IMG/VR virus record: IMGVR_UViG_3300017917_003565
Span: 1-64,000 of that record
DNA length: 64,000 bases
DNA from: a virus
Strand: one strand, 5' to 3'
The first letter of the stretch is position 1. The number at the start of each line of letters is the position of its first letter. The notes beneath the pieces are model-generated. The model did not search any database. It was not told the origin of the DNA and saw only the letters and a program-made list of their open reading frames with translations. The translations under genes and the position numbers were made by a program. This document shows, piece after piece, positions 1,502 to 54,812 of the stretch.

Positions 1502-1682
1502 GATTGATTTTTTTGGTATAAGTCATAGAATATTCAGCCAATTTTAGTTTTAATTCTGTATCCAAATCCTGTAGAGATGGATCATCTCTACGCAGAACTC
1601 CAGATGGGCGTGCTACAGCGCCTCGCTTGGAAATTACAGCTACTACAGGAGAAATAGGATTGACTGTCATCTCAAGTTTCAC
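1491..1682 (-). CDS. Small hypothetical protein
   Basis: 63-aa ORF filling the gap between flanking genes. Confidence 0.45.
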   Translation of the reverse strand: MKLEMTVNPISPVVAVISKRGAVARPSGVLRRDDPSLQDLDTELKLKLAEYSMTYTKKINHAS

Positions 1683-1686
1683 ATGA

Positions 1687-4600
1687 TTATGTCATCTCTG
1701 GTACTACATTGAACGGACCTTGATTCTCTAGTCTATCTCCTTGACTGATCAGCCAGGTCTGTGCTGTGCGGTTGGCATCGCTTTGGTTGTTGCCTACACC
1801 GCTGAATCTATAAACTTCTTCGCCGGATCGATCCAACACACGCCAGGCACCTGTGAATTCTCCAGATGATTGTGCGGCACGCTGTCTTGCCAGATCCATT
1901 GTGGATCCGGGTATGGGTTCACCGCTGGACTGTGCTCGCTGGCGCCATGGAGGTGGTTCTTGTGGATTGGCTTCGATGCTGATCACATCACGACCTTGTG
2001 CTTGTAGGGCCGAGCGTATACGATCCATGGCCGCATTGGCGTTCTCAGCATCTATGTTTAGGCTGTCTTCTACTTCTTGTCCATTTCTGCGTTCGCGCCA
2101 GCGAACTTTGTAATGCCCGGTATCACGAACAGCACCTGCTGGCTGGGGCTCTCCTACACGGGCCCGTATCTGTGCCCGATCTTGTTCATTGTCGGCTTGC
2201 TGGTTGACCCAGTCTTCAATCTCTCTGTCAGTGGCCGGACGGATGTTTTCCACATAACTGCGATTGCGGGCGAAGAAATCATCTTGTTTTTCTGCCTGGG
2301 CCTTGGCTTCGGCTTTGTCTCGGGCCTGTACCAAGGTGCCTTTGCCCCCAAACTCCACTGCCCACCATATGGATCGTTGTTTGAGACGCTGGGCCACCTG
2401 TGCTCGCTGGCTGAGTTTCTTTTCGGGTTCGGGAGTCTCGTCGGGTCTACGGAACACTTGCCAATCATCGGACAGTCGATCTCCGTATTCTGCTTGGACT
2501 TTTTCGTTGGCGCTATCAATGTCCTTGGCTCTCACTGTGAGTATGATGTCACCGTAGGAATCTTTGACATCAAACCATGGATGTTTTATACGAACATCCA
2601 GACTGTTCCAGCGGGGGTCATCTTTGTATTTCTTTTTGTAAATATCGTTGGCGTCGTCGTAGTCTGTGGCATAGAACGTGTCAATCACACCATCGGGGCT
2701 CTTGGACTTGTTCATGTCGTAGACTTCGTATTCTATTTTACCAGTGCTGGGTATTTCTTTGCGTAGCACAGCATCGGCCCACTGTTTCTTGAGTTGTTCG
2801 GGAGAGATTGTGCCCGCCGCATATTCCGAGAACAGTTTCAAAGCATCATCCTGTGCGCCTGGACTGATCAACTTGTACAGCTTCTTGGCATACTCTCGGC
2901 GTTCCAGGGCTGGACTACCGGCGATCTGCATGGCACGTGCGAAACGCAACATGGTATTTTTGATATCATCATATTCGCCGCGACTTTCCATGCTCAAATA
3001 ATCACCACCGGGGCTTCGGAACTCGATGTAGCCATCCTTGATGTGTGCTGATGTGTACTTTGAATTCCCCACGCCTTGTTGAACATAACGAGACGCTAAC
3101 TCAATGAGATTCTTTTGCACCAACTCTAGCGCACCCATAGGGTCCAGCTTGGCTTCTGTGAGTTCACCTCGATTTCGAGCACCGGCTATGTTTTGGCGTA
3201 GTTTCTGCATGGCCGAGGCAGCATAGGTATTTGAAGCGCGACCGAACTTGTCCAGGATGTATTCGTCGCCCATGAACAGCACCAATTTGACGTAGTCAAC
3301 GTCACCGCCTACATAAGGGATGGATATGCCCATGTGTAGTCCGGTAGAATTATTGGTGTAGGCATCGGCTTCATCGTTGCCCCAGTCTATGACTGCTTTG
3401 AGTTTTTCCAGGGCCTGGGGCAATGGCATGGGTGGCGACACGATCTCTAGACCCATATCGTCATCATCATCGGGGTCCAAACTACCATCTGGTTCTATGA
3501 TCCAACGATCGTCTTTGCGAACGGTTGAGTGATAACCCGACCCCACTTTGACATCCATGCCCACTACGTCATGCAAACTCTCAGCAATACTATCCCAGTC
3601 TCTGCTACCACCGCCCGATGAACCACCGGTCCAGTAAGGCCAGTCCAGGCTGAAACTGTTGCCAATCTCGCTCATGTAACCATAACGATCACGCAGGAAA
3701 TCGCTTTCGTCATAGTCGCCACTGTCCGCCATCATGTCAGAGAAGTATTCTCGGGCCGAATCATAGTATTCGCCTTGGCTTTCAAATTCGCTGACGATTT
3801 CACTTTCAAATTCTTCGTAGGCCGCATCGTAGGCTTGTTTATACTTGGCATACAGATCATTTTCTTTCTCATAGGCTTCTTGATCACTGCTCTTAGTAAA
3901 ACGTGGAGCGGCGTTGCCGGCCTGCATGATGTCTTCAACATCGTCGTCGGGAAACAACTCATCTATCTTGTTGACTATACGGTTGTCGCGTTCTTCGTCA
4001 TCGCCCCAGACATTGGTCTCCATGTAGTCACGCACTTGATCTTCTGCATCGTTGTCCCACTGCTCTTGGATCTGCTCATCGCGCCATTCGACAAATTCTT
4101 CCATGAGGCTGTTACGTAGTTCTCTGGCACCGCGTGGACTCAATCCATACCCATAGTCATCATTGGAAAAGAAATCTACCACATGCTCGACGCTGTCGGG
4201 GCGCTCGTCATAGTCGTAATCAGGTTCTTGATCTTCATCATCTTCGTCACGCTTGGTATCACGGAAGATCATTTCTGCTTCAAACCCAGCACGGATGCCC
4301 TGGGCTTCGGGCGATCGTGCCCAGGATTCCAGAGCCGACGGACTCATTTTGACTTCATCTAAAGGTTGTTCTATGCTTTCGGCCACTTGTCGACGATACA
4401 ACTGATACATCTTAAGGAATTCTTGTTCTTGCCGGCTCAACACTCGCCCTAACTGTATTTTGCCCATGATGAACCGGTAATACTGTTCGGCGTCCTGGCT
4501 TTTGTTCACTGGAGCCTGTATAGTTTCATCCACATTATAGGTAGGATCGGTCTTGACGGCTTTGCCAACTCTCCGTTTAGGATCACGAGGATCTATGTCA

Positions 4601-18278: not shown

Positions 18279-18624
18279 TTTTTACTTCCTGTGTTAAACG
18301 TTTATTTTGTGTGAGCTGATCTGTCAGCTTCTTGTTAGATTCTTGACTTTGTTGTTCTGCTACCGCTACCCGGGCTTCTAACTCTTTGACACGCTCACGC
18401 CAACTGCGTTCTACATCGGCACCACCTTTGAAATACACTCCCAGCACCAGGCAGATCACACCAATGGCCTGTATGGGCCCACGATAAAGATTAAAGTAAG
18501 GTACCCATCGAGCTATCCATGATGCACTTATTCCTACAAGACCAGCTATGATCAAGCCATTCACGAGAACGGTGATCAACCAGTCTGGTACCAGACTCCA
18601 AAGGACAGCCAACTGCCACATCAA
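18094..18624 (-). CDS. i-spanin (Rz-like)
   Basis: N-terminal TM helices then coiled coil; directly after endolysin. Confidence 0.7.
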   Translation of the reverse strand: MMWQLAVLWSLVPDWLITVLVNGLIIAGLVGISASWIARWVPYFNLYRGPIQAIGVICLVLGVYFKGGADVERSWRERVKELEARVAVAEQQSQESNKKLTDQLTQNKRLTQEVKNANQAAVRANAEKINSECRVPDVAISLHNSASKNQVSGGAKGTPGTLPAPGTSQPTRPPAK

Positions 18625-22724: not shown

Positions 22725-23008
22725 CCGGCTGGTGCCGATTCAACTTTGATACTGACAGGATGTCCGTTTTCTTGGAACAGCCGTTCTATGGTGGCGCTGT
22801 AGTGTTGGTAATAGTAGCTCACGATACGATCCCAGTCCTTGGGTATCACTGTGCCATTCATGGTGGCCTGCAACACACGTTGGTCTTTGAAATCCAGTAT
22901 CACGCTGGCAGATTGATAGTCTTTTGTACGCAACCGTTTGGTCACAGTCATTACTTCATCAATCTTGCCAGAAGGCTTGGTAAGGTAGGTCATTATTAAA
23001 TATCTCAT
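22721..23008 (-). CDS. Hypothetical protein
   Basis: 95-aa ORF coupled to radical SAM gene. Confidence 0.6.
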   Translation of the reverse strand: MRYLIMTYLTKPSGKIDEVMTVTKRLRTKDYQSASVILDFKDQRVLQATMNGTVIPKDWDRIVSYYYQHYSATIERLFQENGHPVSIKVESAPAG

Positions 23009-24129
23009 AGTCGGTACTTTTTCATGATAGACTTGTATGTATCAAGATTTTTGGCCTTGGGAGCACAAAGTCCGCAAAAACAGTTGTATTTTTTGCACTG
23101 TATCACTGGAGCATCATCATGATCCAGTTGACGAGCCAATGTATCCAAAATACTCTGTGTGTCTGTGAGATATCCAATGGGCCCAACTGATCCTTCAAAA
23201 TTCATTTTGCAATCTTTGTTGACAAACACCTCGCCGGTGACTTGTTTGACATAAACAAAAAAATGATTTACACTACAATACCAATCCGGAAACTTGTTTT
23301 CTACATAGAAATGTCGTTGCTTGAGATTGCCATTGGTGCAAATCTGACGACCACCGCAACATGCTCGTCCTAGATCGGTAAGATTGCTGTGAGACTTATT
23401 TTGCAGTAAATCCTGGTCATGGCCATAGTTTTTGTCTTTGTACAGTTTACCAAACCACTGTACCTGTTGCTGATCATAGATTCTTTTTTCCAAGGTGCCT
23501 TGATGACCGTCTAACTGTCTTGGCAATACCGGTATGTTGTTTTGCTCTAGCCAGGTTATCATGCTGGTTGAATCTTCAAAAAGATCCTGTCGCTGATGCA
23601 TCAAAACCACACATTTCTGTCGGCGTCCCGCAGAAGCAATGGACAGGAGATTGCGTTTGAATTGTTGTTTTTGTTTGTCGCTGTTTTCAGAGTGATAACT
23701 CACAGTAAACTCATCAATCAAGGGCATGATCTTTTGTAGTTTTTTATCCGACACTATGGCATTGGTAGTAGTGGTCACAATCAGATTCCATCGATCAGCA
23801 TAGGGTATGTGACGTGCTCTTACCTGTTGCAGTATTTCCACGATGTAAGGATGATGCAGACTCTCGCCACCATAGACATTAAGAACCACATGGCGTATAC
23901 CTTTGGGCTTGGTGCGCATGTAAAGGTCCGCATAGGCAAACATAAAGTCCAGAGCGGACAAACATTGGCTCACATGAGGATGCTGGGTAGTGTTGTCATG
24001 TCCACCATAAAGACCGGTTTCACAGTAGCTGCAATCAAGATTGCATTTCATGGTCAACTCCCAATCCAGCAAAAACGTGATCCGATTGCCAGGATCTATT
24101 GCTGGTTCAAGTGCTTCAACCAAGGTCAT
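23005..24129 (-). CDS. Radical SAM enzyme with C-terminal Cys cluster
   Basis: CNLDCSYC, GGE, TTNA, SYH; C-terminal CKKYNCFCGLC. Confidence 0.85.
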   Translation of the reverse strand: MTLVEALEPAIDPGNRITFLLDWELTMKCNLDCSYCETGLYGGHDNTTQHPHVSQCLSALDFMFAYADLYMRTKPKGIRHVVLNVYGGESLHHPYIVEILQQVRARHIPYADRWNLIVTTTTNAIVSDKKLQKIMPLIDEFTVSYHSENSDKQKQQFKRNLLSIASAGRRQKCVVLMHQRQDLFEDSTSMITWLEQNNIPVLPRQLDGHQGTLEKRIYDQQQVQWFGKLYKDKNYGHDQDLLQNKSHSNLTDLGRACCGGRQICTNGNLKQRHFYVENKFPDWYCSVNHFFVYVKQVTGEVFVNKDCKMNFEGSVGPIGYLTDTQSILDTLARQLDHDDAPVIQCKKYNCFCGLCAPKAKNLDTYKSIMKKYRL

Positions 24130-52698: not shown

Positions 52699-52944
52699 TC
52701 AACCACCATATTTCAGCAGACACAACGTGTATTTCTGGGAATCAATGATTTCGGGTTCCCCAGTAATACCACCATCCTCGTCATAGATCGGTCGGAATCC
52801 ATGTTGAGCTTCGCACCAATCCCAAAAGTTCCAATCAGTAGGATGATCTAACATGACCTTGCCTAGCATAGCCCAGTAGGCTTTACTATCGCCCACTACG
52901 GTGTCTAATCGTGCCGCCCGGTCTCGATAGAGATCATCGTTCAT
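52699..52944 (-). CDS. Small hypothetical protein (LKY-ending family)
   Basis: 81 aa. Confidence 0.6.
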   Translation of the reverse strand: MNDDLYRDRAARLDTVVGDSKAYWAMLGKVMLDHPTDWNFWDWCEAQHGFRPIYDEDGGITGEPEIIDSQKYTLCLLKYGG

Positions 52945-53263
52945 TGGGCCACCTTAGTTGAAAGAAGTTGAGTTCCTTGTCGGTGGCCAAGAAAAAATAA
53001 AATAGGTTATATTTGCTAGGATTGTCCCATGCCCAGTGTGGGTTTACTGTGTAACCATGATGTTCTAGGTAACCATGGTAACGTGCCTCGCAACTGTGTC
53101 CCCAGGTATCTGTGCACCAATTTTTCATGCGACGATACAGGTCTATCTTGGCAGGAAAATCTCGTAACTCGCCATCGTTGATGTGTATGCGATACCGAGC
53201 AAAATGACTTCCTGTGTATCTGCGATCTATAAGTTTGATATCGTAGTTTTTCATTTTGTTCAC
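52934..53263 (-). CDS. Small hypothetical protein (FxLRW family)
   Basis: WCxxxWG, FFQLRW. Confidence 0.6.
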   Translation of the reverse strand: MNKMKNYDIKLIDRRYTGSHFARYRIHINDGELRDFPAKIDLYRRMKNWCTDTWGHSCEARYHGYLEHHGYTVNPHWAWDNPSKYNLFYFFLATDKELNFFQLRWPNER

Positions 53264-53500
53264 ATGCTCTGCCAGGGCCGGCGGTTACTATAGAAGCAAT
53301 CTGTGCCACAACCAGTTGGTGGCACGTCTTGGTTGCCCGATGGGGCTCAGCAAGACAGGATTAACAACCTCGCCATCCGCTTCACGGCGCCCTGCGTTAT
53401 CGTATTGCCAACGCCAGTTGGGTTTGACTGGGACCACCCGTAGTTCGCTAAAACCACTATCATGCGGGTCACACTAGACAGGCGCTACCTGTCACGAACC
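53258..53500 (-). ncRNA. Candidate multi-hairpin structured RNA
   Basis: About eight abutting hairpins and a long-range CAGGGC/GCCCUG pair in a gap without a credible ORF. Confidence 0.55.
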
Positions 53501-53501
53501 A

Positions 53502-53696
53502 TTAGTGGAGAGTGTCTCCACCATCCACACCCCAAAATACCGATCCACCAGCATCATGAAGATCCTGCATTTTTTTGTTCATTACGGCTTCCTGTACTCT
53601 TAGTAATACTTCATCTATCTCGTCCTGTGTCAACATGCTTTCCGGCAACTTGCCTTCTAACACTGCCCAAATAATCATTTCTCTATCTTCGGTCAT
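53502..53696 (-). CDS. Hypothetical protein
   Basis: 64-aa ORF. Confidence 0.55.
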   Translation of the reverse strand: MTEDREMIIWAVLEGKLPESMLTQDEIDEVLLRVQEAVMNKKMQDLHDAGGSVFWGVDGGDTLH

Positions 53697-53704
53697 GCCA
53701 GTTC

Positions 53705-54121
53705 CTATCTACAATCACATTTCATCAATCGTTGGTCTCGATGTCTGCGCCAGACAGCATCCAGATCATCTGCACGGAATATCTTGTCAAACAATCGGTC
53801 AGTAATGCCTTCTACACCAGCATAGACGATTTCTTGTGTGCCTTCCCACCATTCGTAGTCAAGATTCCACTTTGGTATCAGAGACCCACGGGCGTCGCTG
53901 TCATGCATGGGCACTATGTTGCGCCACTGTAGCATGAGGCGGTCCAAGGTTTCCTGCCAATACCAACGGCTCCATTCCGAACTAGCACGGCCCAGAGCTT
54001 CTCGGGCCGCATCCAATCTCAAACCAAGATTTTCCATTTCCAAGCCTATCATGCGCCAGTTACGCAGATCTGCTTGCACAGCCACAAACTCTATAGGGGT
54101 TGACTTGGCAAATAGGTTCAT
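53705..54121 (-). CDS. Hypothetical protein
   Basis: 138 aa, sigma70-like promoter upstream. Confidence 0.6.
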   Translation of the reverse strand: MNLFAKSTPIEFVAVQADLRNWRMIGLEMENLGLRLDAAREALGRASSEWSRWYWQETLDRLMLQWRNIVPMHDSDARGSLIPKWNLDYEWWEGTQEIVYAGVEGITDRLFDKIFRADDLDAVWRRHRDQRLMKCDCR

Positions 54122-54157
54122 GATTTTAGTTTACTATACACAGTGGTTCCTGGTCAA

Positions 54158-54424
54158 TCAAGACCATTTCATTACGAATGCCAGACAATCTCTTTCATCG
54201 TCAAAGAAAAAACAGTAGCGTCCGGGTTTGATGTCTGAACTCATTTCTATCAACTGCCAGCGCCATTCACCAATGATTTCGCTTTTGCACCAGCTCAGCA
54301 CAGTTTCTATCGCGCCAAAAGGTTTGATGATTTCTTGTGCATAGCGGAAACTGTCACGATCTCTGACCCAATCCATCGGTGGCATCTGTGGATCGGGCTT
54401 GACTTTGCTTTTAAGCTGGGTCAT
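54158..54424 (-). CDS. Small hypothetical protein (FxMKW family)
   Basis: WC, FFFDDERDCLAFVMKW. Confidence 0.65.
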   Translation of the reverse strand: MTQLKSKVKPDPQMPPMDWVRDRDSFRYAQEIIKPFGAIETVLSWCKSEIIGEWRWQLIEMSSDIKPGRYCFFFDDERDCLAFVMKWS

Positions 54425-54812
54425 AGATCAATCTATTGACGTGTTGCTTGGGTATACCCCAGAAATCATAGCTGTCTATGATGTCACGCACATAACCAGA
54501 ACTAGGTGTGCCAGTTTTTGGATCATTCATTTCATAGAAGAAAAACTGTATGCCATCTTGTATCCAGGTACGTTTAACATAATAATATGGAAAACCTTCA
54601 AAATGATCCAGAGACTGTTCACAATCACGAGTAAGGCTCCACAACACACCCGGGCATTCGGCACCTGGCCGAGGTTCAATGGTGGCATGGCAGTAAAACT
54701 TCAGTTCCCAATCACGCAACATAAACGCACCCTTGGCTTGAGCTTGTGGGCATCTCCAATGCATCTGTCCTGGATGCATGTTAGCACCATAGGCAAAATA
54801 TAAGTTTTCCAT
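54411..54812 (-). CDS. Gamma-glutamylcyclotransferase (AIG2-like)
   Basis: YFAYGANM, GVLWSL, LDHFEG, PSSGY. Confidence 0.85.
   Translation of the reverse strand: MENLYFAYGANMHPGQMHWRCPQAQAKGAFMLRDWELKFYCHATIEPRPGAECPGVLWSLTRDCEQSLDHFEGFPYYYVKRTWIQDGIQFFFYEMNDPKTGTPSSGYVRDIIDSYDFWGIPKQHVNRLIYDPA

Follow-up and report, generated by a model that had tools for sequence, protein, structure and literature searches.

A predicted gene for a previously undescribed structured non-coding RNA in an uncultured clade of jumbo phages

Introduction

Among the complex RNAs borne by phages, GOLLD and ROOL (RF01998 and RF03087) are ornate, covariation-supported non-coding RNAs that are still functional orphans. 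They are 580–800 nt long and contain many multistem junctions and pseudoknots. Phage T4 has the stable RNAs C and D (species 1 and 2; about 120–140 nt), also of unknown function, which are encoded in its tRNA cluster and mature from precursors shared with the tRNAs. Further non-coding RNAs found near phage tRNA genes are the bacterial Y RNA-like YrlA (RF02553) and phage tmRNAs, which act in trans in RNA quality control or translation, and T-box leaders carry the motif GGGUGGNACCGCG. RNAs with a complex fold, invariant unpaired bases and heavy covariation have repeatedly proved to be ribozymes, riboswitches or cores of ribonucleoproteins (RNPs), and jumbo phages use tRNA arrays for translation control and for evasion of tRNA-directed defences.

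The stretch of DNA analysed here, referred to as the window, comprises the first 64 kb (64,000 nucleotides) of the 112-kb IMG/VR record IMGVR_UViG_3300017917_003565, for which CheckV gives a completeness of 33%. Judged from the sequence, positions 53264–53501 on the minus strand are a putative gene for a previously undescribed, intricately folded, discrete structured non-coding RNA. Among the orphan structured RNAs of phages, which are a known kind, it is classed as a new family.

With a family length of about 200–260 nt (about 230 nt in the window), the RNA is much smaller than GOLLD and ROOL, it has no sequence or structure match to them by cmscan, it is confined to one clade of jumbo phages, and only the genomic context is shared. 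It resembles T4 RNAs C and D in being a small RNA encoded, in some relatives, within a phage tRNA cluster. However, these are shorter, and blastn against 50,697 phage records revealed no similarity. The YrlA model did not match the element, and its weak, chance-level matches fell on true tRNAs elsewhere in the loci. ARAGORN found no tRNA or tmRNA in the window and none on the element in the relatives, the Rfam tRNA and tmRNA models also miss it, and it lacks a 5'–3' terminal stem, a T-arm and an acceptor mimic; a tRNA, tmRNA or tRNA-like identity was ruled out on these grounds. A T-box was considered, as GGGUGG and ACCGCC are both present and invariant and the RNA can lie among tRNA genes. However, about 150 nt separate the two motifs, the RNA lacks a specifier stem and a terminator, RF00230 gave no match, and ACCGCC pairs with GCGG and not with GGUGG, as can be deduced from a compensatory change to GAGG/CCUC in one relative (L116).

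More generally, none of the 4227 models of Rfam 15 matched any part of the window at the gathering score, nor positions 53100–53650 at E≤10. At eight loci of relatives, Rfam returned only tRNAs and chance matches elsewhere and none on the element, and no description of the RNA was found in the literature. The first-pass annotation of this DNA had proposed an undescribed multi-hairpin phage RNA of no recognisable family, and this proposal is supported by the empty Rfam results as well as by the homologues and the covariation presented below.

The locus and its coding potential

The genes around the RNA locus lie on the minus strand. A gap of 238 bases separates the TAA stop codon of a 64-aa open reading frame (53504–53502) from the ATG of a 106-aa open reading frame (53254–53252). 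The GC content is 0.56–0.59 within the gap and 0.40–0.50 in the flanks, which agrees with the enrichment described in the first-pass annotation, and the complementary segments listed there were all located on the minus strand where it had placed them.

The same annotation saw no credible reading frame here, and this was borne out. The reading frames of the gap reach at most 73 aa and have no Pfam or PHROG family. Between three close homologues, the 33 substitution columns are distributed 11/8/14 over the codon positions, so that 3-periodicity is absent, two single-base insertions or deletions shift every frame, and stop codons occur in each of the six frames in at least one of the three sequences. 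A small protein-coding reading frame was therefore ruled out.

A scan of the window for promoters and terminators found none on the minus strand, and the RNA is not followed by a terminator. This missing terminator counts against a discrete stable RNA.

The 64-aa reading frame is the final gene of a block of small genes and is conserved in relatives in which the RNA occurs in that context. The neighbouring proteins have no Pfam or PHROG family, except for a gamma-glutamyl cyclotransferase-like (GGCT-like) gene further upstream. In the window, the block (53705–54812 and 53502–53696, minus strand) encodes the GGCT-like protein of 133 aa, a protein of 88 aa with EWRWQLIEMSSDIKPGRY, a protein of 138 aa and the 64-aa MTEDREM protein; its synteny extends across many relatives, and the RNA marks its end. 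The 106-aa protein on the other side also lacks a Pfam or PHROG family; the motifs DRRYxGSHFA and WGHSCExRYHxYL, with many Cys and His residues, are invariant in it. It has five clusters of homologues (P0002–P0006) at 64–69% identity; the gene is absent from G001/G002.

Homologues and distribution

Two metagenome contigs that encode a homologue of the 106-aa protein (L002 and L003) both carry the RNA. Together with the window, they define a sharply bounded conserved block of about 214 nt (window 53264–53477) upstream of the 106-aa gene. The element is 87–93% identical at the nucleotide level, the adjacent coding sequence 66–72%, and the sequence 5' of the block is unrelated (about 45% identity). 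With a 22-mer from the block, the element was also located in L004 and L005, two IMG/VR contigs (mutually 99.9% identical) that belong to a single further phage. The exact 22-mer GTGAAGCGG... gave no match. The virion protein of the window (773 aa) is only 38% identical to its homologue in this phage, which is thus a distant relative, and the 5' domain of the RNA is almost identical despite this divergence.

With an alignment of the two virion proteins, 80 related viral contigs were obtained, among them complete genomes of 337–353 kb with terminal repeats. The three close sequences served to build a covariance model (R1), which was run on 45 of these 80 as whole records and yielded 13 more copies with E values of 1e-17 to 1e-47, each covering the full length of the model and always one per record. 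A single copy is also present in the window's own record, where R1 matches 53261–53494 with 284.6 bits, and in the records of L004 and L005. A second model (R2), restricted to the 5' domain and built from 14 diverse members, matches the window at 53395–53502 and recovered the same set without anything new. In total, two metagenome contigs and 14 IMG/VR records, 16 further sources, provided 15 distinct homologues, so that the search for homologues suggested with the first-pass annotation had a clearly positive outcome.

The RNA belongs, as a single copy, to the core features of an uncultured clade of jumbo phages with genomes of about 340 kb and is present in five of the six records that are at least 90% complete. 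In the sixth, IMGVR_UViG_3300042473_001265 (G021; 340 kb, 98% complete), no copy was detectable even with R2. Thus, the RNA is not indispensable. A diverged copy was also sought with filters off at the syntenic site in this genome and in G012 and G025, and none was found. G021 is the sole near-complete relative without a detectable RNA; a 111-aa gene of the small-gene block is still present there.

Outside the clade, blastn against the 50,697 phage records (cultured phages), with the window and a member from a tRNA array as queries, gave no match. Two scans of 185,579 prokaryote species genomes revealed no host or prophage copy at the stringency used, and searches of viral contigs with either flanking protein alone or with alignment A1 returned nothing. 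The nearest cultured phages are Atu_ph07 and Phosso, with a virion protein that is 28% identical.

Secondary structure and covariation

The free energy of folding does not single out the sequence. The minimum for the minus strand alone is -86.5 kcal/mol, compared with -84.7 ± 5.2 kcal/mol in dinucleotide shuffles (z -0.35), and the plus strand gives a z of -0.93. A fold no better than shuffled controls had been named in the first-pass annotation as something that would refute its candidate, and the candidate did not pass this control. Such an ordinary fold energy counts against the reading as a structured RNA. However, the shuffle control is a weak test for a GC-rich sequence and is overridden by the covariation, another check that had been put forward there, which turned out strongly supportive.

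Covariation was assessed in a structure-blind MAFFT alignment of the 5' domain of 14 distinct members (A11), in which 23 pairs of five hairpins were counted. Base pairing was found in 96.0% of the cells, compared with 71.7 ± 1.7% in shuffles; 18 of the 23 pairs had changed on both sides (10.8 in shuffles), as had 65 cells (18.3 in shuffles), and the covariation score was 0.67 versus 0.22, with none of 500 shuffles reaching the observed value. When the 3' partners were slid by 1–3 columns, only 30–40% of the cells paired. In a count over the full length of four sequences, 98.2% were paired and 15 pairs were compensatory. In the long closing stem (alignment A10), all cells of the 12 pairs were paired and seven of the 12 pairs had changed on both sides. 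Two caveats apply: alignments A7 and A10 were fitted to the model and are biased towards its structure, and shuffle counts overstate significance because the sequences are related. The robust evidence consists of the structure-blind alignment A11, the controls with slid partners, and the occurrence of three or four pair types at single positions.

G.U pairs occur in Pa, P2, P3 and P5 and are frequent in Pa, P3 and P5. As they would be A.C on the opposite strand, the RNA was read on the gene-sense (minus) strand, an assignment that is also supported by its co-orientation with tRNAs in relatives. With compensatory changes beyond the controls and no coding signal, the general criterion for a conserved structured non-coding RNA is met, and there is very little doubt that the element is a real conserved structured RNA.

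The fold begins with five successive hairpins in the 5' part (P0, Pa, P2, P3 and P4), followed by a bulged closing stem, the apical domain that this stem encloses, and a single-stranded tail (Table 1). The invariant bases lie in loops and joints, namely in the ACC triloop, GGGUGG, AACC, UGGCAAU, CUGA/AAC and the tail.

Table 1. Predicted features at the RNA locus (positions in the window)
Feature	Position	Strand	Basis or remark
Predicted RNA gene: short leader, P0 to P8, 3' tail	53264–53501	-	Matches of R1 and R2; conservation block in alignment A2
Upstream 64-aa open reading frame (MTEDREM...)	53502–53696	-	Synteny in L003, L105, L107, L108, L109, L115, L116
Downstream 106-aa Cys/His-rich open reading frame	52934–53254	-	3' of the RNA only in the window, L002 and L003
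P0 hairpin, GACAGG-UAGCG-CCUGUC, immediately 3' of the upstream gene	53477–53493	-	
Pa hairpin, GUGUG-ACC-CGCAU	53462–53474	-	100% of cells paired
P2 hairpin, GUGGUU-UUAGCG-AACUAC	53440–53457	-	Sequence and loop variable
J2, GGGUGGUC	53432–53439	-	Alignment A11
P3 hairpin, CCAGU-CAAACCCA-ACUGG	53414–53431	-	100% paired
P4 hairpin, CGU-UGGCAAU-ACG	53401–53413	-	100% paired
Long closing stem, 5' strand with two bulges	53377–53394	-	12 pairs, 6+2+4 bp
Parts of this 5' strand: P5 CAGGGC, bulge GC, step CG, bulge UGAA, P5b GCGG	53389–53394 (P5), 53385–53386 (step), 53377–53380 (P5b)		
Long closing stem, 3' strand CCGC-CG-GCCCUG, 12 continuous paired bases	53273–53284	-	
P6–P7 module: GUCUUG, CUGA, GCCC-CAUC-GGGC, AAC, CAAGAC	53326–53356	-	
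P8 hairpin, GUGCCAC-CAACUGGUU-GUGGCAC, lineage-specific	53303–53325	-	7/14 members
Conserved single-stranded 3' tail, GCAGAGCAU	53264–53272	-	Consensus G-N-AGAGCA-Y, all members

In P0, all five pairs counted vary on both sides among the 14 members, and 91% of the cells are paired. Pa is a new hairpin that was not part of the first-pass annotation. Its ACC triloop is invariant in 13 of 14 members, while its stem appears in relatives as GUCCG/CGGAC, GUGUG/CACAC, CUGUG/CACAG or GUCUG/CAGAC, with variation at pairs 1 (G.U/G-C/C-G), 3 (G-C/C-G) and 4 (U.G/U-A/C-G). The stem of P2 differs in nearly every member, and pairing is always kept. The joint J2 has the near-invariant, single-stranded core GGGUGG(U) and is possibly paired with the loop of Pa. 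In P3, the loop core AACC is invariant and the stem varies (CCAGU/ACUGG, GUCUU/AAGGC, CCCGA/UCGGG, CCCGU/ACGGG), and in P4 a conserved loop U(G/A)GCA(A/G)N is closed by CGU/ACG, CGC/GCG, CCC/GGG or CGG/CCG. An insertion of about 55 nt with two extra hairpins was observed between the GGGUGGU joint and P3 in L117 (about 1640–1700, minus strand), which indicates that this junction tolerates insertions.

CAGGGC/GCCCUG forms the outer part of the long closing stem. Its inner GCGG/CCGC is invariant except in L116, which has GAGG/CCUC instead. The apical domain varies between lineages and consists in the window of P6-CUGA-P7-AAC and P8. The P6–P7 module is found in nine of 14 members, with covarying stems and an invariant internal loop CUGA/AAC, and in P8 a C-G pair is replaced by U-A in L002 and L003. 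The members from tRNA arrays, L115 and L116 have other hairpins in this domain.

When the nine pairings of the first-pass annotation are compared with this fold, six covary: GACAGG/CCUGUC, CCAGU/ACUGG, CAGGGC/GCCCUG, GUCUUG/CAAGAC, GCCC/GGGC (P7) and GUGCCAC/GUGGCAC. The helix CAGGGC/GCCCUG, proposed there to close a multibranch domain, is the best-covarying long-range helix. Two others, GCGUU/AACGC and CGCCGU/AUGGCG, are not conserved in the homologues and have to be abandoned, the former being replaced by the 3-bp P4 (CGU/ACG); the 3-bp pairing AGG/CCU is also unconserved. ACCCG/CGGGU remains ambiguous. It overlaps the better-supported Pa and its sole support is one compensatory event, a joint change of ACC to AUC and of GGGU to GGAU in L108, which was matched by 32 of 500 shuffles. 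ACCC/GGGU may represent a contact between loop and joint or an alternative conformer, and as Pa and ACCC/GGGU cannot both form fully, the fold of this region is unresolved.

Three further pairings were considered and rejected. A pseudoknot GGUGGU/ACCGCC is disrupted in L116, which shows covarying GAGG/CCUC instead; a pseudoknot between the P4 loop and J9 fits the window and L004 and fails in the members from tRNA arrays; and a hairpin GC-AGA-GC in the tail is not conserved.

Genomic contexts

The RNA was found in several settings. In the window and in L003, L105, L107, L108, L109, L115 and L116, it follows the small-gene block (GGCT-like, 88 aa, 138 aa, about 57 aa and the 64-aa MTEDREM protein, often with the 111-aa protein) and starts 6–14 nt past the last stop codon. 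Downstream of it lies either the 106-aa protein or a reading frame of 152, 178, 201, 350, 358 or 472 aa, starting 7–139 nt away.

In five other lineages (L106, L110/111, L112/113, L114 and L117), the RNA lies inside a tRNA array and on the strand of the tRNAs. In four of the five, it starts 5–6 nt past the encoded CCA of tRNA-Tyr or tRNA-Pro, and in L117 78 nt past tRNA-Asp. The next tRNA follows 67–240 nt later without a plausible intervening reading frame. A homologue of the 111-aa block gene in these genomes is more than 110 kb away from the RNA.

A third arrangement occurs in the phage of L004, in which a 306-aa reading frame and a radical SAM gene flank the RNA, and tRNAs follow after another 1.9 kb. 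The gene after the RNA, which here is not the 106-aa gene, encodes a B12-binding radical SAM enzyme of 572 aa (L004 1937–3655, minus strand). Several radical SAM enzymes are encoded by these phages, including one in the window at 23005–24129 (minus strand). The 4.8-kb metagenome contig L002 (1226–1345 and 329–1225) has the RNA and a 103-aa gene behind a promoter, and a divergent gene for a TctC-family periplasmic binding protein adjoins, a context unlike those in the jumbo phages. From these differing contexts it can be inferred that the RNA changes place as an autonomous unit, independently of the genes downstream of it.

Proposed role and alternative explanations

An autonomous stable RNA that acts in trans, and not a cis element, is regarded as the probable explanation, with only modest confidence. 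In particular, "stable" and "processed" are inferences from the genomic context in the absence of data on transcripts, end mapping and abundance.

An alternative is a cis-acting 5' leader, either riboswitch-like, protein-binding or controlling the translation of the following gene. The distance from the end of the tail to a start codon is only 7–10 nt in four members (the window, L002, L003 and L004) and 12 nt in a fifth, L107. In L002, a perfect consensus sigma-70 promoter (TTGACA-17-TATAAT) is situated directly upstream of the element, next to the divergent gene. Both observations would also fit a leader, and invariant joints combined with variable stems are typical of ligand-binding RNAs. 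However, no reading frame follows the RNA in the tRNA arrays of five lineages, and elsewhere the downstream genes are unrelated to each other and up to 139 nt away. Hand checks revealed no conserved alternative pairing that would mask a ribosome-binding site, there is no terminator, and no riboswitch family of Rfam matched. With downstream partners that are unrelated genes or tRNAs at distances from 7 to more than 200 nt, and without an expression platform, the criteria for a riboswitch or cis leader are not met, and this explanation appears unlikely.

It is similarly unlikely that the element is a self-cleaving ribozyme or a dedicated processing module which separates the upstream tRNA or cistron from whatever follows. 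The position between genes and within operons of phages would suit such an activity, as would the tight 5' edge, which lies 5–14 nt from the upstream gene in 13 of 15 members (the exceptions being L117 with 78 nt and the promoter-fed L002), and the complex core with the invariant unpaired bases CUGA/AAC and GGGUGG. However, the CUGA/AAC module is missing from the members in tRNA arrays, host RNase P and RNase E normally suffice for the maturation of such arrays, and 200–260 nt exceeds the size of most small self-cleavers. None of the Rfam ribozyme models (hammerhead, twister, twister-sister, pistol, hatchet, HDV-like, glmS, VS) matched, which does not exclude a new class.

A passive element, be it a stabiliser of mRNA or tRNA precursors, an insulator, or a DNA site for origin, packaging or recombination, would agree with a GC-rich, hairpin-rich, single-copy sequence between transcription units, yet this is very improbable given that conservation is higher in loops and joints than in stems, a feature not required of a simple stabiliser, that G.U pairs would turn into A.C mismatches on the opposite strand and G.T pairing in DNA is weak, that the genome position is not fixed, and that no repeats or iterons were seen.

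If the RNA is indeed an autonomous trans-acting species, it would be co-transcribed with whatever lies upstream, that is, with the small-gene block or with tRNAs. Its excision from the polycistronic precursor might then fall to the nucleases responsible for maturing the adjacent tRNAs and mRNAs, with release brought about by those which remove tRNA 3' trailers and cleave 5' of the following tRNA. The RNA would accumulate as a stable species whose invariant single-stranded motifs could mediate an action in trans. It would most plausibly do so as a component of an RNP or through contact with a conserved host RNA or protein from the sphere of tRNA and translation. The extreme conservation of the 5' domain across phages whose proteins have diverged to 38% identity points to a conserved partner, probably a host component, and the setting in tRNA arrays implies the tRNA and translation sphere. 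Any specific molecular target could be named only with low confidence at best.

More speculatively, the RNA might represent a new functional class with an active biochemical role in the tRNA biology of the phage, which is possible and, for the time being, doubtful. One option within this proposal is that GGGUGG and the ACC triloop bind or mimic tRNA 3' ends and thereby protect or redirect the large tRNA set of the phage, conceivably as a means of countering host defences that target tRNAs. The other option is a new class of ribozyme that matures the tRNA array.

The RNA is compact (about 230 nt), evolves more slowly than the surrounding proteins, is kept by most members of the clade of about 340-kb phages and is in several of them wired into tRNA arrays, which makes it a tractable candidate for in vitro work on structure and activity. 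Its use as a marker gene for the uncultured clade is also conceivable.

Further RNA candidates

The first-pass annotation had also suggested that the locus, together with other loci, belongs to a set of phage non-coding RNAs. This was not supported, as there is one copy per genome, no homology was detected, and the other candidate loci were not matched by the model. One weak match of R1 in the window (18349–18481, minus strand; 16.8 bits, E 0.002) is probably due to chance, since its position is within coding sequence and the search of whole genomes failed to retrieve it. In two of the tRNA arrays, stretches of about 230–240 nt between the RNA tail and the next tRNA (L110 1268–1500 and L112 1701–1941) are free of tRNAs and of any convincing reading frame and might contain another non-coding RNA.
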